DNA from: Escherichia phage V18
Reading direction: 5' to 3' (one strand)
Sequence record: NC_041937.1
DNA: 64,000 nucleotides
Part shown: one piece after another, positions 43,560 through 60,410 of the stretch
Numbering within the stretch: the first letter of the stretch is position 1
How the letters are laid out: every line of letters begins with the position of its first letter
Translations under genes and position numbers: made by a program
Notes under the pieces: model-generated
Told to the model about the DNA's origin: nothing
The model's input: only the letters and a program-made list of their open reading frames with translations
Database searches by the model: none

Positions 43560-44395
43560 GCATCGCCTAGTGTAAGCGTTTGGCTGGTGGCACTTTTAAA
43601 TCCAGACTGCAGTGCTGACAGGTGGGCGTTAAAGGTTGACTTTTTCATCTCCCCGCGAGCAAACCTGGACTCTAACTCTGAGTATCCTGGCAAGCTTCCA
43701 CGGAATCCGGCCCCATACTTGGCAGAAAGTCTTATCGCGGAGTTGTAGAGGTGGGTTCTTCTTGCCTCACGATCCGACATAAGCCTATTATCCATACCAG
43801 CTTTACCGTCCCTTCTTAGCTGTCTATGATAACGATTCATAGCAGCTGTCTGAGCTTTTACAAGATTAGGGTCGGAAGCCACACCACCCATATTAGGGTT
43901 ACCGGGGATATATTTGAAAGCTTTGGCATTAGCCAGAACTCTTGCCTTAGGTGCCTTATAACCGCCGTAAGACACTGGTGCAGATTTGGCAGCCTTTTTG
44001 GCCTCTTTAGCTTGCTGCTGGTAGAACTTACGCATCCTAGCCATTTCTGGATTTTTAGCGGTAAGATTACCTACAGCTTGTTTACGTCTCGCATTCTCCC
44101 TACGTTCTATTGCAGCCCTTACTGCAGCCTCTTTCTTGGCCTGTGCTACGCTCTCCCTGTGCAGCTTAGCATTTGCCTGAGATTGCTGTCTGGCAACCCG
44201 CTGCATTGTCTGCTGGGTTTTAACAGCTACCGCCTGCCATCTACTCATGGGGTTGGCTGAGTTAAAATCCTCACCTAGTTTCCTGAACTCCCTCCCAATA
44301 CTGCGAATTTTCTCTACAGCTTTTTTGTAGGAGGAGTTCTCTATCTCAAAGCCAATCTTGTTGACTGTTGTGGCAACTATTTTGTTTGTAGCCAT
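43556..44395 (-). CDS. basic coiled-coil protein, possibly N-terminal part of tape measure
   Basis: 279-aa K/R/A/Q-rich ORF; ATGA overlap with 42060..43559. Confidence 0.45.
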   Translation of the reverse strand: MATNKIVATTVNKIGFEIENSSYKKAVEKIRSIGREFRKLGEDFNSANPMSRWQAVAVKTQQTMQRVARQQSQANAKLHRESVAQAKKEAAVRAAIERRENARRKQAVGNLTAKNPEMARMRKFYQQQAKEAKKAAKSAPVSYGGYKAPKARVLANAKAFKYIPGNPNMGGVASDPNLVKAQTAAMNRYHRQLRRDGKAGMDNRLMSDREARRTHLYNSAIRLSAKYGAGFRGSLPGYSELESRFARGEMKKSTFNAHLSALQSGFKSATSQTLTLGDA

Positions 44396-49461: not shown

Positions 49462-49914
49462 TTATGCCAGTGCAGCCTCAAAATCTTTCATCATATTTTG
49501 GAAAGTTTTTGCCTTACTTAAGGTAACACCGTACTCTTTGGCGAAGGTTTGGAGTGCATCTTTTGAACCACTTTTGTCATCTTCGTTGTTAAGAGCTGCT
49601 GCCTGCTGTAGTATGGCATCAACATCACTGCGAGAAGATCTTGATTCTTGTGCCTGTTCAGGATCCTGCTCAGTGCCTTCCTCAGGTACAGTCGGGCCTT
49701 GAGATTCTTCACCACCACCAGGTTCAGTAGGACCTACAGGCGGCTCCGGCTCTGGTTCAGGCGGTGGAGCTACCGTAGAGGTCAGTCCAAGATTCACAAC
49801 CTGAGAACGTTTCTTAGGCCACTCAATGGTGAAAGTTTGGGTATCTTCTTCATAAACAATGCTGCATTGCTCATCGTTTATGGTCACTTTTTTAGGCATC
49901 CCTACAGGTCCCAT
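49462..49914 (-). CDS. Pro/Glu-rich head-associated protein
   Basis: 150-aa ORF. Confidence 0.4.
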   Translation of the reverse strand: MGPVGMPKKVTINDEQCSIVYEEDTQTFTIEWPKKRSQVVNLGLTSTVAPPPEPEPEPPVGPTEPGGGEESQGPTVPEEGTEQDPEQAQESRSSRSDVDAILQQAAALNNEDDKSGSKDALQTFAKEYGVTLSKAKTFQNMMKDFEAALA

Positions 49915-53873: not shown

Positions 53874-55429
53874 TTAGATAAAACGCTTGAACATAGAAGG
53901 TGATGAGATTGATGGAATCACACAAGGAAGTGCTACCTCCTCTTTCTCCAGGAAATTAATCGCAGAAGCTACACAGTCGGCCCAGTCGTCTTTTCTGTTA
54001 AATGTTGATCTTTCCCCGTTGAATTTTTCAAGTTCAGTCAGAAATGCTTCCAGAGTATCAGGATGGAAACTGGATTTTACAATCCTCACCATTCCTTGTT
54101 GGGCAAGATTGGCAAAAGGTGAGAACCTTGTCAGTTTAGATTTGTTGGAAGGCATTGGGTCTTCTTCAACCCTAAACCCTTCGGCAAGCAAGGATCTGGA
54201 GGAGGTTAAGAACTCACTCTTACCTGCCTGACCGGGGTCCACAGAGAATACGATTATACAATCATCACCATCAAACTGCGCCTGTTTCCTGATGATCACA
54301 TCTCGTTCACCAGCCTTTTTACAGAACTTGCCTTCCAGACCTGTGGAATACCTCCCGTCATCCACGTTCTCAGGACAATAATCCCCGGACAGGTAATAAA
54401 AGCCGTCGCTATCTTTACTTACCTTGACACTGGCGGTAAAGTCAGGAAATTTATTACCGGAAGTTCTCTCGGTTCCTGCTTTATCCCATGCCCTGCAAGA
54501 CACTGATCCAAGGGGTACTCTATCGGCATCACGAAGGAAAGATCTTTGAAAATAGTTTGCACCCTCAGGCTTTGCAAACCAGTTACCATGGAGAAGCTGA
54601 GCTTTTTCAAGCTCGGGCAGACCTTCAAGGAAAGCAAGGTATTCTGGGTTGTCTCTTAAGCAGACAGGATTATCGAAGATTGTTGCGCCTATAAACGAGA
54701 ATGACAACGGTCTCGGCTTGATCTCTACACCCAGTCCGTTAACCGTGGTGTATTTCTCTATCAACTCTTCTTTAGAGTCTCCCCAGATAAATTCACCGTC
54801 GCGTCGGATAAAATATCTTTTCTTACCGCATTTCTCCGGATCTGGATACCCTTCATCGTCCAACCACCACCTAACCAGTTTGGCAAGCATGTGTTCTGAA
54901 TCGGGGTTACAGCTGATAACCATTCTTGATGGATACTTTGACTGAGATCTCAGACGAGACATCAGATAGTCTATCTGCTCCCATTCGAACTGCGTGCCTC
55001 ATCGAAGCAAACCAAGCAAACCATGGTATACTCAAGCCCTTGATGGTTAAGCTTATCTTGTACATACTCCATGTGGCAGTATTTTACAACAGCTCCCTTT
55101 TTGCTTCTATCCCACTTGCCAGTGTTCGGATCAAACCGTGGAAAAATGAACTTATGATCCTTCTCTCTGAACTTTGGCTTAATGTTTTCAGGCAGATCAC
55201 TATAAATAGCTACTGCTTTAGGCCATAGTCCACCCTCACCTTCCAACTGTGGGGTTGTTCTTCGGAACATAACCACAGAGCTGTGGGGGTCATCAATAAT
55301 TTTAAGTGGCATCAATTGCAAGAGGAACGACTTGCCAGACCCTGCGGCACCGCCGATTACCAAAATATCTGCATCGTTTTCGAGGATCATCTTCTGCTTT
55401 TCAGAACACGGTCCGTAAATCTTAGACAT
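53874..55429 (-). CDS. terL: terminase large subunit, split by apparent frameshift at about 54975..54998
   Basis: N-terminal ORF 54971..55429 has Walker A GGAAGSGKS and Walker B LVCFDEA; C-terminal frame is open from 54998 (QFEWEQIDYLMSRL...) and continues in ORF 53874..54962. Confidence 0.7.
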
Positions 55430-56531: not shown

Positions 56532-56608
56532 TGGTCTCCACGGAGTGATTCGAACACTCGACCTCCTGATCCCAATGGTTTATCTCTACCAAGCTGAGCT
56601 ACGCGGAG
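56532..56608 (-). tRNA. tRNA-like gene, possible anticodon TGG (Pro), anticodon stem does not pair as read
   Basis: Good acceptor stem, TTCGAAT T-loop and encoded CCA; putative anticodon loop ATTGGGA but flanking stem unpaired. Confidence 0.45.
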
Positions 56609-56619
56609 TATTTATTATT

Positions 56620-56694
56620 TGGTGGCCCTGGGTGGAATTGAACCACCGTCTGGCGATTATGAGTCGCTTGCTTGAACCTTCCAGCTACAGGGCA
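56620..56694 (-). tRNA. tRNA-Met/Ile-like (anticodon CAT)
   Basis: T-arm GGTGG-TTCAATT-CCACC, anticodon loop CTCATAA, encoded CCA; position 1:72 mismatched. Confidence 0.55.
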
Positions 56695-56770
56695 TGGTGC
56701 TGATAGCAGGACTCGAACCTGCAACCTATTGATTACAAATCAATTGCACTACCAATTGTGCTACATCAGC
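56695..56770 (-). tRNA. tRNA-Thr (anticodon TGT)
   Basis: Clean cloverleaf: 7-bp acceptor, D-stem GCAC/GTGC, anticodon stem ATTGA/TCAAT with loop TTTGTAA, T-arm GCAGG-TTCGAGT-CCTGC, CCA encoded. Confidence 0.7.
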
Positions 56771-56775
56771 AAAAA

Positions 56776-56860
56776 GGTGCTAGGTGATGGAATCGAACCA
56801 CCTATGTATTCAACGACCAATAGATTTACAGTCTACACCGCTACCTCTACGGGATAACTC
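56776..56860 (-). tRNA. tRNA-like sequence, Tyr-like anticodon arm (GTA) with long variable region; no acceptor stem found
   Basis: Anticodon stem-loop GTAGA-CTGTAAA-TCTAT and T-arm with TTCGATT loop present; 5' and 3' ends do not pair. Confidence 0.3.
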
Positions 56861-56867
56861 CCCAATT

Positions 56868-56942
56868 TGGCACCCCGTACTGGACTCGAACCAGTGTCAA
56901 CGGCTTAGAAGGCCGCTGCTTTATCCACTAAGCTAACAGGGC
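56868..56942 (-). tRNA. tRNA-Arg (anticodon TCT)
   Basis: Acceptor GCCCTGT/ACGGGGT (with G-U pairs), anticodon stem GCGGC/GCCGT with loop CTTCTAA, T-arm ACTGG-TTCGAGT-CCAGT, CCA encoded. Confidence 0.65.
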
Positions 56943-57377: not shown

Positions 57378-57721
57378 GTTTCCTCCATTATCACGTGATA
57401 GGTGGATTTTATCACAGCAAATACTGATTGTCAAGTTCGCCGCAGGGGTGTATTCCCTGCGACTTGCCCAGCGTCCTGGACCAGCAAGACCCAACAAGTG
57501 GGTTACCAGAGCACATTACCGCGCTTTGGCTCGACCTTATTACAGGTTGGCTGGGGTCACATCGTCATGTGCTGGCTGCCCCTACCATTTTAAGTGTGGT
57601 GCACTATCAAGCCCTCTAAGGGGAACTCAGTCTTCTCCGAACCCTGTTTCAAAACATCCGGAGATAAAGCCATCAAATTCATCTTTAAATCGGATATTCA
57701 TCATGATACACGAAAACAACC

Positions 57722-58240: not shown

Positions 58241-58819
58241 TCAGCGTTCATAATAAATCTTATTTAACATTACCTCATCCTTTGCAGAGAGAATACCGAG
58301 ATATGCATCACCGAACCTACCTGCAACAACCTCTACATGATACATCACTTCGTTAATATCGTCAAGAGTGATAACTGGATGACCGTATCTCTCTGAGTAT
58401 TGTCTCAGAGTGCGATGTAGGGAATCATCATCGTAGGCAGACTTTTTAATATCACAAACACGACGAATAGCCTTGATGTCGAAAAACCCTGTGCGATACC
58501 AACCAAGAAAAAGGTTTCGTACAGTGTCAACACCTACATCAACACCGTCAAGAACCTTATCTACAAGATAACTGTCATCCTTTGGACCTGCTTCCTTAGT
58601 GCGAATGTAGTTGCCATCTTTTCCAGGTGACATCTCCTTCTCATCACCAACCTGAATACCATCATTTGGTGGTGTTAACCACTTATCCGGATGCTTACGA
58701 TCACGAGCGTTAGAATGATTACGCTGGAAACCTGGCTTCCACTTGAAAGTTTTCTCCATCTGTTCTTCATTCTGATAACGTTTTGCAATCTTTTCACGGT
58801 CATCTTTGCGTGGACTCAT
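58241..58819 (-). CDS. hypothetical protein
   Basis: 192-aa ORF. Confidence 0.45.
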   Translation of the reverse strand: MSPRKDDREKIAKRYQNEEQMEKTFKWKPGFQRNHSNARDRKHPDKWLTPPNDGIQVGDEKEMSPGKDGNYIRTKEAGPKDDSYLVDKVLDGVDVGVDTVRNLFLGWYRTGFFDIKAIRRVCDIKKSAYDDDSLHRTLRQYSERYGHPVITLDDINEVMYHVEVVAGRFGDAYLGILSAKDEVMLNKIYYER

Positions 58820-58924
58820 AGCTGCCTCCTCTTCAAGTTATAGAAAAACTCACTGTATCGCTTTGTAACGAGCTTTTCTATCAAACTGGTGCGATTGCCT
58901 TACCTGGTATAGTTTATATAGCTG

Positions 58925-59190
58925 TGGAGCGATTTAGGGGCCTTCTTGTCCGTTTCCACACATAAACTTCATCCAAGCTCGCGCGGGAGACTCTCAACCG
59001 ACTCCTTACGGCGCTGGCAAGCTTTCGTCGGTGGTCCACATCAGTGCTCGGCCTTTGGCCTGCGCTATCGCTTCGCTCCCACACATGTTAACAGACCTGC
59101 ATGTATGCACTTCTGTTATTGTGTGCACCCGGGAGGCCCGGCATCTCGCCCCTCGTAGCGAGTGCCAATGAAGGGCCGACACTACCCGTA
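58925..59190. other. GC-rich non-coding island, possible structured RNA or origin-associated element
   Basis: About 260 bp visibly richer in G+C than flanking DNA; several short hairpins (CCGGG-AGG-CCCGG, CTCGC-n8-GCGAG); only ORF is a low-complexity 70-aa frame without RBS. Confidence 0.3.
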
Positions 59191-59320
59191 GTAAGTAATA
59201 AATTTAAAACATAGTACTTAGGATCTAGTATATTCTACATAAGTTAAGTATATGTACTTAGTACCATAAGTACTAGATCTTTTATTTTTTATTATTTAGT
59301 TATTTTAGTTATATTCTTTA

Positions 59321-59383
59321 TGTGTCCGTATCACGGACAGTTAGTGTCCGTATGACGGACAGTAGTGTCCGTATCACGGACAG
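59321..59383. repeat. three tandem 21-bp repeats, each containing the palindrome GTCCGT-ATC/ATG-ACGGAC (iteron/operator array)
   Basis: Units at about 59323, 59344 and 59365, read directly from sequence; AT-rich region with inverted repeats GATCTAGTA/TACTAGATC (59222..59279) lies just upstream. Confidence 0.6.
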
Positions 59384-59457
59384 TTACTAACCTCTGTTCC
59401 ATAGCGAACATAAAACATACGAATCCTTATAGTACAGATATTTAAGTTTTTACTGGT

Positions 59458-59808
59458 CTAACCAGTTGTTGACATTCGAATAACTTCTTCTGGTGGCAAA
59501 ACTTTGGAAAATGTGCATCTTTTACCTCTCCCTTGTGTGGATATTTCAACCACTCCTGCACATTCTAAAGTTTTAACGCACGCTGCTGCTTTTGTTTTCT
59601 TTATCCCAATATCTGCTGCAATTTTCCTTGTGCTGGGCGTGAAGCGTGAATTTCCTCCAAGCTTATACCAGTTGTGCAGGTAGCAGTATACGATCTTGTC
59701 ATATAAGTCAAGAACAACAACCTCACCAGTTGTGTCATTCAAAACTTTTGACATAGACAGTATTTCAAGGGGGACTTTAAGATATAGCAGCTTATCCCCA
59801 TCTTTCAT
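59458..59808 (-). CDS. winged-helix/HTH DNA-binding protein
   Basis: 116-aa ORF; STRKIAADIGIKKTKAAACVKTLECAGVVEI resembles wHTH recognition region. Confidence 0.45.
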   Translation of the reverse strand: MKDGDKLLYLKVPLEILSMSKVLNDTTGEVVVLDLYDKIVYCYLHNWYKLGGNSRFTPSTRKIAADIGIKKTKAAACVKTLECAGVVEISTQGRGKRCTFSKVLPPEEVIRMSTTG

Positions 59809-59855
59809 ATCTCCTGATTCTCCTTGTGTGGCAATTTTCTTTAAAATAGCAGGGA

Positions 59856-60410
59856 TTACTCCCCGCTGTCAATAGCAAGACTCATTGCAATACGGTATGC
59901 CTCTTCTAATGGTAAGAGTCTCCCCCACACATCCCAACCGACATCAAACTGCCTGCCAAACAACTGCTGTGTGGTTCCGTGAGCATGACCGAACAGTTGG
60001 ACCGATCCGTGAGGCTTTCTGTTCCACTTTGCAAACTGGTAATGGCTCATACAGATCAAATTCTTGTTGTGGCGAAGCTCGTAATAATCTACAACCTCAT
60101 GACCGAACTCTTTCATAATTCTGACAGTCGTCCTTGTGTCATGGTTACCACGAACAAGAATAATATGTCCGTTCAACATATTTAGAACATCTGGGAGCAA
60201 TTTGTTAATATTCTTATCATTAGTGCACGCAATATCTCCTAAGTGAAACACAGTGTCTGCAGGTGACACAACAGAGTTCCACTTGGTGATGATCCCCGCA
60301 TTCATACTGTCAAGATTGTGATCATACTGAGATCTGTGTTTTTGACATGAGTCAAACTCCATGACCCGCTGGTGGAGAAAGTGTGTGTCGCTTGTTACAA
60401 AGTATTTCAT
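59856..60410 (-). CDS. calcineurin-like metallophosphoesterase (RNA-repair-type phosphatase candidate)
   Basis: Start moved to ATG 60410 with GAGGA RBS; motifs DTHF, GDI and GNHD in canonical order. Confidence 0.6.
   Translation of the reverse strand: MKYFVTSDTHFLHQRVMEFDSCQKHRSQYDHNLDSMNAGIITKWNSVVSPADTVFHLGDIACTNDKNINKLLPDVLNMLNGHIILVRGNHDTRTTVRIMKEFGHEVVDYYELRHNKNLICMSHYQFAKWNRKPHGSVQLFGHAHGTTQQLFGRQFDVGWDVWGRLLPLEEAYRIAMSLAIDSGE

Follow-up and report, generated by a model that had tools for sequence, protein, structure and literature searches.

What kind of element is the GC-rich stretch at positions 58925-59190 of a 64-kb window (the 64,000 nucleotides of an rV5-like phage, genus Vequintavirus, analysed here)? 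A first-pass annotation made from the sequence had described it as a GC-rich island unlike the surrounding DNA, and the GC profile bears this out. The GC content of 0.575 compares with a window mean of 0.442 (z = 4.3 for 266-bp windows, sd 0.031) and is attained by just 0.013% of all 266-bp windows; the 64-kb maximum lies at 58926-59191. The flanks of the island have a GC content of 40-42%, and the 129 bp immediately upstream (59191-59319) one of 19%. The conserved element proper is on the minus strand and runs from GTCGGCCC (59180) to CCCCTAAAT (58932); CCCCTAAAT was also considered as a phage promoter motif and dropped, as it is not enriched. We conclude that the island is a conserved, non-coding, hairpin-forming element adjoining a putative replication origin of rV5-like E. 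coli phages. On sequence evidence, it is a new family, whose function we infer.

The island contains ORFs of 56, 58, 70 and 46 aa. The low-complexity ORF lacking a ribosome-binding site that had been noted earlier is correct as to the presence of ORFs, though these are not strictly low-complexity; none of the four behaves as a gene, in agreement with the earlier view of the island as non-coding. The 56-aa ORF (58914-59084, minus strand) corresponds to gp074, which is annotated in rV5 and in phages of the BASEL collection, and its frame is open in 17 of 18 aligned phages with both internal indels being multiples of three. However, variable sites are distributed 15:21:16 over codon positions 1, 2 and 3, without a third-position excess, and translation would have to start at a GTG that lacks a Shine-Dalgarno sequence. 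In L003, a divergent relative, codon 42 of the frame is a stop, and the same stretch in plasmid copies (alignment A4) has gaps of 2 nt and of 4-5 nt, lengths not divisible by three. It is thus very improbable that the island encodes this small protein. The remaining three ORFs have frameshifts or stops in most relatives.

Comparison with known RNA families agreed with the initial failure to match the island by eye. With Rfam 15 at gathering thresholds nothing overlapped the island, and at E ≤ 10 the sole overlap was rli43, at 27.9 bits compared to a threshold of 100 and mostly over the AT-rich stretch; two complete plasmid-like elements that carry part of the island (see below) likewise gave no Rfam match. 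The proposal of a ribozyme or intron remnant was not borne out, there being no such Rfam match even at E ≤ 10 and no intron context. No tRNA or tmRNA was detected in the island with ARAGORN and the tRNA covariance model, the only tRNAs being at 56535-56942. Several resemblances seen by eye were dropped. A hammerhead core was rejected given an unconserved CUGAUG and a missing A9/stem II part, and Chi given a match limited to GTGG. For type I-E and I-F CRISPR repeats there were partial string matches only, the phage stem differing from the I-F-like plasmid stem and the I-E hairpin being absent. A near-consensus DnaA box was found only at 58951-58962, with the number of near-matches not above expectation, and a resemblance to integron attC ends was also set aside.

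Relatives of the island occur in Vequintavirus genomes and in 13-kb E. coli plasmids. The blastn and tblastn matches to the island and both flanking proteins were confined to Vequintavirus, and the sister genera Mydovirus and Seunavirus have no equivalent module beside the phosphoesterase gene, the syntenic place. A core-motif scan of genome contigs gave no matches, scans of viral contigs found just one divergent contig, and a metagenome scan gave 13 matches, corresponding to six true family members and seven chance matches in unrelated coding DNA. Thus the whole module, consisting of an HTH gene, repeats and the island, occurs only in Vequintavirus among phages and is shared with the plasmid-like elements. 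This distribution partly fits the horizontal acquisition suggested in the first-pass annotation. Phage and plasmid-like element alike have an island of 57% GC in a genome of 44%, indicating that GC richness belongs to the element and its stems and is no trace of a GC-rich donor.

The island is almost without variation in 18 aligned Vequintavirus copies and near-invariant across ~117 Vequintavirus genomes. It is also conserved in L003 despite different upstream DNA. There is one copy per genome, and neither the window nor the plasmid-like elements contain a second or inverted copy of the core. The conserved core of ~105 nt that is common to the plasmid-like elements (58980-59085, minus strand) has 83-85% identity to the E. 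coli plasmids, with whose copies it was aligned (A4). At its boundaries are UGUGUGGGAG (59076-59085) and CUCCCGCGCG (58980-58989), two segments able to form a helix together. The 3´ part of the island (58932-58962, minus strand) comprises two motifs, a further UGUGUGG (58956-58962) and CCCCUAAAU (58932-58940), which, by eye, recur 3´ of the core in the plasmid-like elements. In the window as a whole, TGTGTGG is enriched (25 observed compared to 10.8 expected).

The several short GC hairpins reported earlier are present, and comparison among relatives indicates that at least two are maintained by selection. Hairpin P1 (59132-59180, minus strand) is formed by GGCCC/GGGCC, GGCA/UGCC and CUCG(C)C/GGCGAG with a loop of 7-8 nt. 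For its 15 pairs, 99% of cells in the alignment are paired, compared to 35-48% in slid controls, and two pairs are altered on both sides, from G-C in the phage copies to U-A in the plasmid copy L010. Hairpin Pd (58998-59031, minus strand) has the stem CCGAC/GUCGG and a 24-nt loop, GAAAGCUUGCCAGCGCCG(U/G)AAGGA (59003-59026), in which only the U/G position varies. Its stem is 100% paired in 13 distinct sequences, with slid controls at 10-48%, even though it differs between phage and plasmid copies; two of the five pairs are changed on both sides, CCGAC/GUCGG in the phages corresponding to CUGCC/GGCAG in the plasmids. Hairpin P2 (59080-59125, minus strand; inverted repeat I3 and MFE fold), with CACACA/UGUGUG, AACAG/CUGUU and UGCA/UGCA, constitutes the island's variable part. 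The phages rV5, Murica and MaxTheCat lack 18 nt here and retain a shorter hairpin, CACACAUG/CAUGUGUG, and L003, read by eye, has a C-G pair where the window has A-U. In the MFE fold the core is closed by a UGUGUGGGAG/CUCCCGCGCG helix that needs three U-G pairs. In total, compensatory changes affect approximately four to five pairs, drawn from very few independent lineages (phages, L003 and the plasmid group).

Folding of single sequences was less telling. On both strands, and with RNA or DNA parameters, the folding energy of the window copy gave a modest z of about -2 relative to shuffled sequences, so the case for structure rests on comparison with relatives. A consensus fold of the 18 phage copies had little variation and one compensatory pair only, and mispredicted the core; the phage copies are too invariant for this purpose and comparison of phage with plasmid copies was needed. 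The compensatory changes in P1 and Pd, two pairs each, together with the near-constant Pd loop, lead us to conclude that the element probably acts as a folded single strand, RNA or DNA. The structured RNA of the first-pass annotation is therefore upheld as regards selection for secondary structure, while RNA and displaced single-stranded DNA both fit. The architecture is unusual, with hairpin modules connected through a boxC-like linker and a terminal core with one invariant loop. Nearly all of the hairpins have loops of 3-4 nt and perfect Watson-Crick palindromic arms in which G-U pairs are rare, and in this they resemble inverted repeats in DNA more than an old RNA.

The neighborhood of the island may point to a role in replication. 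Reading along the minus strand, a 116-aa winged-helix/HTH protein is encoded at 59458-59808, annotated in relatives as a replication initiation protein or transcriptional regulator. It matches PF13730 HTH_36 (E = 1.5e-5) and PHROG 12838 "replication initiation protein" (3e-80), with weaker matches to three further initiator PHROGs. The gene is followed by three tandem 21-22-bp repeats (59322-59386; family D1), each with a 17-bp palindrome TGTCCGTATCACGGACA, which are candidate sites for the adjacent HTH protein; rV5, Murica and other relatives have additional copies, and in phage nomine the repeats are annotated as repeat_region. Then comes the AT-rich stretch with long imperfect inverted repeats (59191-59319), a candidate DNA-unwinding region, and finally the island. 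Directly 3´ of the island lies a gene for a 192-aa protein (58241-58819, minus strand), preceded by an untranslated leader (58820-58905, minus strand) with a 12-bp AU-rich hairpin (58840-58881; inverted repeat I7) and a ribosome-binding site. The leader is near-identical in all phage copies including L003 and is absent from the plasmid-like elements. The 192-aa protein belongs to PHROG 12226 (unknown function). It had no Pfam match, a PDB sequence search was empty, tblastn matches were in Vequintavirus only, and the predicted structure, with a mean pLDDT of 48, was unusable. A 51%-identical homologue elsewhere has no island upstream; the island is thus not tied to that protein family.

In L003 the HTH gene is replaced by that for a different 143-aa HTH protein, which has a match to the initiator phrog_8102 (3.9e-6). 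This gene is followed by five different 20-nt repeats and another AT-rich, purine-rich stretch at the corresponding place, and yet the island is kept. The circular E. coli "plasmids" of 13.2-13.9 kb provide a further context. They encode capsid, tail and initiator-like genes and have the base composition of the phage; the capsid gene is their own and divergent, and the tail genes are related to those of Vequintavirus. The core is essentially the sole nucleotide-level similarity to the phage, other short matches to the window (44000-44035 and 49612-49646) being within coding DNA. It lies downstream of arrays of 6-10 repeats, which differ between elements, and upstream of sigma-70-like promoters of an operon encoding a 303-aa protein. 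For the 303-aa protein, a MarR-type HTH match and matches to initiator PHROGs 428 and 391 are weak and lie below curated cut-offs. The repeats are the only constant neighbor of the element, always 5´ on the same strand. In three independent contexts, the island adjoins repeats of the initiator type and an AT-rich stretch, in one orientation throughout, and it appears that the initiator gene and repeats are swapped between elements while the island stays.

We therefore favor, at a probability of roughly 35%, the possibility of a two-part replication origin in which the island, as the constant and structure-forming half, serves as a priming or loading signal. The variable half would comprise the initiator-type HTH protein, its own tandem binding repeats and an openable AT-rich stretch; the constant half would be the island, just past the AT-rich stretch and fixed in orientation. 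Upon opening of the duplex, or displacement by the first round of synthesis, the window minus strand would fold into a row of hairpins, of which the final module would present the near-invariant 24-nt loop on its 5-bp stem. This loop could be recognized by a priming or helicase-loading factor, either host PriA or DnaG or a phage gp4-like primase-helicase, and synthesis would begin on the displaced strand. Since the recognized part would be independent of the initiator, it could be kept through exchange of initiator and repeats and be shared by the phage and the 13-kb elements, which appear to depend on such phages. We infer the origin identity of the repeats and AT-rich stretch, the DNA nature of the folded strand and the priming or loading activity from several observations. 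The minus-strand order is HTH gene, three palindromic repeats, 19%-GC stretch and island; the initiator is swapped in L003 and the repeats differ in the plasmid-like elements, with the island constant; and P1 and Pd have compensatory pairs and are 99-100% paired. In addition, the strand of the island that has the orientation of the flanking genes is, under DNA parameters, the more stably folded of the two in 24 of 25 distinct copies, and this strand would be the displaced or lagging-strand template for a fork leaving the AT-rich stretch. The 57% GC in a 44% genome, in both replicons, is expected if stem stability is selected. As far as can be judged from sequence, the island has the strand-specific, structure-conserved hairpins of a single-strand initiation signal. 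Against an origin, annotation of the 116-aa protein as a transcriptional regulator is just as well founded, the palindromic tandem sites also fit an operator or partition site, and the island showed no sequence similarity to those known priming signals that could be compared. The rV5 genome paper describes only skew changes tied to the direction of transcription and no mapped origin.

Other features suit RNA better. A sigma-70-like promoter (59843-59872, minus strand; TTGACA, 18 nt, TATTTT, with TG) lies upstream of the HTH gene, in the stretch matching the annotated promoter P76 of rV5, just upstream of gp075. No promoter-like or terminator-like site was detected between it and the 192-aa gene, and the island is very probably transcribed. 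A structured RNA cut from, or acting in, an early transcript from the HTH gene to the 192-aa gene is consequently the main rival possibility, though still a doubtful one. Such an RNA could be a processed stable ncRNA, an intercistronic element that protects against Rho or RNase, an RNA polymerase-modifying signal similar to nut or rrn leaders, or an origin pre-primer. This would be consistent with the co-orientation of the element with its flanking genes in the phage and the plasmid-like elements, with the greater stability of the sense strand in 21 of 25 copies with RNA parameters, with the three U-G pairs in the helix closing the core, where GGAAG/CUUCC replaces GGGAG/CUCCC in L003 (read by eye), and with the very high conservation of the leader 3´ of the island. 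The plasmid modules also contain C(UUCG)G and C(UACG)G loops of the UNCG type. The C-GAA-G triloop is very stable in DNA, however, and since each UUCG loop is a C-GAA-G triloop on the opposite strand, loop identity cannot tell RNA from DNA. Also arguing against a structured RNA are the lack of an Rfam match, the near-perfect palindromes with almost no G-U pairs, unusual for an old functional RNA, and the variable number of modules, from 1 to 5. In the plasmid-like elements, moreover, the position of the core upstream of the operon promoters places it outside the leader of that operon. A ColE1-type primer RNA was considered and rejected, as the predicted sense transcript leaves the repeats and AT-rich stretch and enters the island, and no opposite-strand promoter-like site was seen.

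The similarity to rrn leaders deserves separate mention. The boxC of rrn leaders is UCUGUGUGGG (PMC10250234), and the linker UGUGUGGG (59078-59085) is identical to boxC of E. coli rrn leaders, and UGUGUGG at 58956-58962 is a further boxC-like motif; the complete 10-mer is found in three plasmid copies (L010, L015 and L018). The rrn leader sequence itself occurs in E. coli genomes with a median copy number of 7. In rrn leaders, boxC provides one side of a wobble-rich helix (PMC10250234), and the boxC-like linker likewise takes part in a predicted helix with wobble pairs. However, boxA is the necessary and sufficient element of the rrn/nut-type antitermination signal, and no GCUCUUUA-like string occurs in the window at the required distance of 18-19 nt 5´ of a boxC-like motif. 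Strings resembling boxA were limited to CGCUCUUUG, directly next to one plasmid module, and GCUCGUUA (58866-58873) in the phage leader, which has one mismatch to boxA and is downstream of the boxC-like motifs. Unlike rrn leaders and lambda nut sites (boxB, boxA, boxC), the island also has no boxB-like hairpin with a conserved loop, and the boxC-like motif is repeated 2-5 times. With boxC present and boxA missing, the island does not appear from its sequence to be a member of this class.

The plasmid-like elements raise two further possibilities. In these elements, modules made up of one to three hairpins have been acquired, deleted and rearranged, with (U)GUGUGG(G) at their boundaries in every case; several palindromes have common TTAGCY/RGCTAA arms, and L018 has an additional three-hairpin block between UGUGG and UUGUGGG, adjoining a promoter. 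This behavior would be expected of selfish or neutral palindromic cassettes, similar to REP/BIME or miniature inverted-repeat elements, that insert or recombine at (T)GTGTGG and are without function for the phage. We regard this as unlikely for the island, given that the core and P1 hardly change over ~117 phage genomes in which flanking intergenic DNA and even neighbor genes differ, that the 24-nt loop is kept between phage and plasmid copies with differing stems, and that each genome has just one copy, with no other in the window.

The second possibility is that the island is the pac region of a headful-packaging phage, copied by the plasmid-like elements for packaging by the helper terminase. 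Vequintaviruses are reported to package by a headful (pac) mechanism (PMC13211470). The near-exclusive similarity of plasmid-like elements and phage in the core would be explained in this way, no terminase or portal gene is annotated in these elements, and the conserved center is flanked by the repeated, enriched TGTGTGG. Satellites classically use the cos or pac site of their helper, as P4 does with P2. This reading is also less likely, and we give it little weight. Terminases read double-stranded DNA, for which compensatory changes that keep stems are unexpected. Known pac sites are usually in or beside the small terminase gene, whereas the island lies ~3.5 kb from the large terminase gene, among early genes, and its constant neighbor is the initiator and repeat set rather than packaging genes. 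The similarity to the cos site shared by P4 and P2 is that, in both cases, a large myovirus and a small element capable of plasmid life resemble each other at the nucleotide level mainly in a short non-coding stretch. The cos site, in contrast, is read as duplex at the genome end beside packaging genes, while the island has stem constraints and lies beside initiator repeats.

Known origins offer partial parallels to a two-part origin. The oriV of the IncQ plasmid RSF1010 combines a domain of iterons with hairpin priming signals, ssiA and ssiB, that can be separated from it. As in the island module, initiator repeats and an AT-rich stretch are separable from adjacent single-strand hairpin signals, and the hairpin part is independent of the initiator and so can be exchanged or retained. 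There is no sequence similarity, and the IncQ signals are two 40-nt hairpins on opposite strands read by the RepB' primase of the plasmid, whereas the island is one strand-specific array of 4-12 hairpins over 250-450 nt without a RepB'-like gene, for which priming is only proposed here. In ColE1, a primosome assembly site lies immediately downstream of the origin, on the displaced strand. Primosome assembly and G4-type signals (the phiX174 n' site, ColE1 rri and the G4 complementary-strand origin) are, like the island, multi-hairpin, GC-rich and strand-specific, lie on the displaced strand near an origin (both putative here), and are conserved in structure above sequence. They are shorter, at 55-140 nt, with established recognition by PriA or DnaG, and have no known counterpart of the conserved 24-nt loop. 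The origins of geminiviruses, circoviruses and the pT181 family similarly place variable initiator repeats beside a co-varying stem with a constant loop, but these loops are nicked by an HUH Rep, while the initiators next to the island are small HTH proteins in which no nuclease domain was detected. Finally, ColE1 RNA II resembles the transcript predicted for the island in being a highly folded, untranslated, origin-associated RNA of several hundred nt. RNA II, however, is transcribed towards the origin and processed there, whereas the island sense transcript would lead away from the repeats and AT-rich stretch, and no antisense partner was seen.

Collectively, these data describe a new conserved structured element, absent from Rfam, that links a virulent phage genus to small E. 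coli plasmids with capsid and tail genes. Found on both sides of this boundary, the element may be a handle shared between phages and the ~13-kb plasmid-like elements, and the 13.2-13.9-kb circular plasmids appear to be satellites of rV5-like phages. More speculatively, they could represent an undescribed family of plasmid-borne satellites of these virulent phages in which the core is a cis-acting, folded single-stranded handle, read by a replication or packaging factor of the helper or host, that would let the satellite use the machinery of the helper whatever its own initiator. If the plasmids are satellites, the common element is an obvious place to seek helper exploitation, and the phage-plasmid system can be set up from existing strains and phages. 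For the rV5-like phages, which are widely used in therapy and biocontrol, the island and adjacent repeats provide a concrete, testable origin candidate.

By its nucleotide matches, the window is part of an rV5-like E. coli myovirus: a blastn query of 801 bp around the island, the GC-rich stretch at 58925-59190, matched 117 phage records at 80-99% identity, all of them Vequintavirus or clearly the same phages under other names. Eighteen records (MG0656xx) are titled 'Campylobacter phage', with Campylobacter jejuni given as host, and show ~97% identity to the E. coli phage across the query; mislabelling or contaminated preparations are the probable cause. A complete rV5-like genome (CP057073.1, 137,565 bp) was deposited as a circular 'plasmid' of a cattle-faeces E. 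coli isolate; the sequenced culture may have held a carried-over virulent phage or one in a carrier state. The first-pass annotation had described the island as unlike its flanks, and the computed profile confirmed that it is an outlier. Its G+C content of 57.5%, compared with a window mean of 44.2% (z = 4.3 for 266-bp windows), is the maximum of the entire 64 kb and is reached by only 0.013% of 266-bp windows. The break is sharp, with 19% G+C in the adjoining 129 bp (59191-59319).

Other features of the window were also noted. A second GC-rich stretch (57379-57627, minus strand) reaches 53% GC, which ranks third in the window. It apparently codes for no protein, is flanked by two small genes and sits upstream of a near-consensus sigma-70 promoter (57434-57406); neither an Rfam match nor similarity to the island was found for it. 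Whole-window scans gave three tRNAs, and a focused scan added a fourth tRNA-like match above threshold (56535-56608, minus strand, 32.1 bits), where relatives annotate a tRNA-Pro just upstream of tRNA-Met in the tRNA cluster, as well as a truncated, sub-threshold match (56786-56852, minus strand, 26.1 bits), relatives having an annotated tRNA-Tyr beside tRNA-Arg. The tRNA set varies among closely related phages. The large terminase subunit (53874-55429, minus strand) is represented by two ORFs 8 nt apart, 54971-55429, in which a Walker A motif was seen by eye, and 53874-54962; the split may be genuine, or it may reflect a frameshift or a sequencing error.

Of the four ORFs (46-70 aa) that overlap the island, one is annotated (gp074 of rV5, likewise in BASEL-collection phages). 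The other three proved to be frameshifted or stopped in most relatives when 18 phage copies were aligned. The gp074 frame was open in 17 of the 18, with variable sites distributed 15:21:16 over codon positions 1:2:3; it starts with GTG, lacks a ribosome-binding site and is stopped at codon 42 in the most divergent relative. The codon-position pattern, the start and the broken frames count against a small protein gene, which we regard as very improbable. The island had no Rfam match at gathering thresholds or at E <= 10, so the earlier suggestion of a ribozyme or intron remnant was not borne out, and ARAGORN detected no tRNA or tmRNA in it.

The genes around the island are all on the minus strand. 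In that order, a polynucleotide-kinase-like gene and a phosphoesterase gene come first, followed by a sigma-70-like promoter found by consensus scan (59872-59843), a gene for a 116-aa helix-turn-helix (HTH) protein (59458-59808), three tandem 21-22-bp repeats, each with the 17-bp palindrome TGTCCGTATCACGGACA (59322-59386), an AT-rich stretch (59191-59319), the island, a very conserved 85-nt leader and a gene for a 192-aa protein with no assigned function (58241-58819). The HTH protein matched Pfam HTH_36 (E = 1.5e-5) and PHROG 12838, "replication initiation protein" (3e-80), with weaker matches to three further initiator PHROGs, and relatives such as rV5 and Murica carry additional copies of the tandem repeat. 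Consensus scans revealed no promoter-like or terminator-like site between the HTH and 192-aa genes, and, judged solely from these scans, the island is therefore probably transcribed within an early two-gene transcript. We also noted two plus-strand occurrences of the 10-mer CCTTGTGTGG upstream of the island, one inside the HTH gene (59531-59540) and one just before its ribosome-binding site (59822-59831); the mRNA form of this 10-mer, CCACACAAGG, is complementary to the UGUGUGG linkers of the island. TGTGTGG is enriched across the window (25 observed, 10.8 expected) and clusters at 58.9-61.8 kb.

In the 18 aligned phage copies, the island is nearly invariant between GTCGGCCC (59180) and CGCGCGAG (about 58978; sequences are those of the window's minus strand). 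The first hairpin, P1 (59132-59180, minus strand), has a 15-bp stem and is present in the phages and one plasmid. In that plasmid the stem departs from the phage version at two pairs, both of them compensated (G-C to U-A in each); pairing held in 99% of cells, compared with 35-48% when partner columns were slid. The second, P2 (59080-59125, minus strand), is the variable part; in rV5, Murica and MaxTheCat its tip is lost through an 18-nt deletion that leaves a shorter perfect hairpin. The core (58980-59085, minus strand) is bounded by UGUGUGGGAG and CUCCCGCGCG, which are able to pair in the computed fold with three U-G pairs; at this position a divergent 137-kb metagenomic phage contig (L003) has GGAAG/CUUCC, as read by eye, the automatic alignment shifting the gap. 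Within the core, the stem of hairpin Pd (58998-59031, minus strand) is CCGAC/GUCGG in phages; the plasmid-like elements described below have CUGCC/GGCAG instead, with two of five pairs changed on both sides. This stem was fully paired in 13 of 13 distinct sequences, compared with 10-48% in slid controls. The 24-nt loop of Pd, GAAAGCUUGCCAGCGCCG(U/G)AAGGA, is constant save one position. The compensatory changes in P1 and Pd span few independent lineages (phages, L003 and the plasmid group), and consensus folding limited to phage copies was uninformative. Collectively, the compensated hairpins, the ORF tests and the Rfam result uphold the proposal of a structured non-coding element absent from RNA databases.

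A search of complete E. coli genomes revealed the core, in one case with the first hairpin, at 83-86% identity on circular 'plasmids'. Four are 13.2-13.7 kb each (NZ_CP020521.1, NZ_CP035869.1, NZ_CP178698.1 and CP148565.1), and NZ_CP043822.1 (39,610 bp) is a head-to-tail trimer of a ~13.5-kb unit; the group also includes two metagenomic contigs (13.9 and 15.5 kb). In the trimer, core copies lie at 1490, 15020 and 28574, and one unit is partly degraded, with truncated capsid and baseplate genes. The major capsid gene of these elements gave no tblastn match among 50,697 phage records. Their baseplate-like protein is nearest to Vequintavirus (50-52% identity) and then to other Vequintavirinae (44-46%), and their tail-completion and tape-measure proteins are 44% and 28% identical to those of the window. 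Small HTH proteins are encoded as well. A further protein, of 303 aa, matches a MarR-type HTH weakly and below threshold, has weak initiator-PHROG matches and, by eye, carries a long acidic tail. The elements contain large repeat arrays and have no annotated terminase or portal gene. Their G+C content of 44.4% equals that of the phage, unlike E. coli, and that of their island is 57.2%. Gene content and composition thus point to the phage, and the elements resemble satellites of rV5-like phages or mini-phages that depend on them. Our literature search did not find a published description of them, and they apparently form an undescribed satellite-like group. A packaging signal common to helper and satellite would account for the core being the sole shared DNA but fits poorly with the stem covariation and the position of the island, and we consider it unlikely.

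The island of these elements is modular: between one and five blocks, each made up of one to three perfect hairpins, lie 5' of the core. (U)GUGUGG(G) precedes every block, and the blocks are shuffled among elements. The longest array folded far better than its shuffles (z = -4.2, 0 of 100 as good). That the island is a selfish palindrome array is likewise improbable in our estimate. Blocks have been gained, lost and shuffled (L018:4300-5300 minus strand; L010:1000-1480), always with (T)GTGTGG(G) at the bounds; L018 has an extra three-hairpin block immediately before a promoter -35 box, and several palindromes have TTAGCY/RGCTAA arms in common.

Among phage relatives, L003 was the most informative. 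Its 192-aa protein is 83% identical, and it keeps the island and downstream leader despite a different 143-aa HTH protein in place of the HTH gene product, also with initiator PHROG matches (phrog_8102, 3.9e-6), and five unrelated 20-nt repeats and a different AT-rich stretch. No such module was present beside the homologous phosphoesterase gene in Mydovirus and Seunavirus, sister genera within the subfamily. On another contig, a homologue with 51% identity to the 192-aa protein has no upstream island. The suggestion of horizontal origin was only half right: the core is shared with the plasmid-like elements and the module is missing from sister genera, but those elements are phage-like in composition.

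Only one neighbour of the island is constant: initiator-type repeats together with an AT-rich stretch, which keep to one side and one orientation in all of three independent contexts (ordinary Vequintaviruses, L003 and the plasmid-like elements) between which the initiator gene and repeats have been exchanged. This resembles the two-part origin of RSF1010, with iterons plus ssiA/ssiB, and, in another form, that of ColE1, with a primosome assembly site on the displaced strand. Given this constancy and this logic, we rank first, at a probability of roughly 0.35, an interpretation in which the island forms the priming or loading half of a two-part origin. The initiator-specific module would open the DNA, and the island, a generic structured module recognised through the invariant Pd loop, would act upon the DNA becoming single-stranded.

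Among 25 distinct copies, the gene-co-oriented strand folded better than its complement in 21 under RNA parameters and in 24 under DNA parameters, which points to this strand as the folding one and does not separate RNA from DNA. A structured RNA from the early transcript (a stable non-coding RNA, a primer, a signal that modifies the polymerase, or protection for the long untranslated stretch) is a possible reading that ranks a close second. Probable transcription, the U-G-rich closing helix of the core and the loops C(UUCG)G and C(UACG)G are consistent with it, as is the identity of an island linker to boxC of the E. coli rrn leader (UCUGUGUGGG; PMC10250234). The leader sequence was confirmed against 5,426 genomes (median 7 copies each); the defining boxA was absent 18-19 nt upstream of the boxC-like linker, and the identity is a lead only. 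Favouring DNA, nearly all local hairpins are perfect Watson-Crick palindromes with 3-4-nt loops and scarcely any G-U. Loop identity does not discriminate, since each UUCG loop is on the other strand a C-GAA-G triloop, which is very stable in DNA. A further point for DNA is that the island of the plasmid-like elements precedes the promoters of the next operon and so is not that operon's leader.

The element, whose function is inferred, constitutes a new family within a broadly familiar kind, that of structured cis elements or RNAs located at an origin-like module. The island connects a phage genus that is virulent and in therapeutic use with apparently undescribed plasmid-borne satellite-like elements and offers a defined, mutable signal for testing the phage-satellite link.
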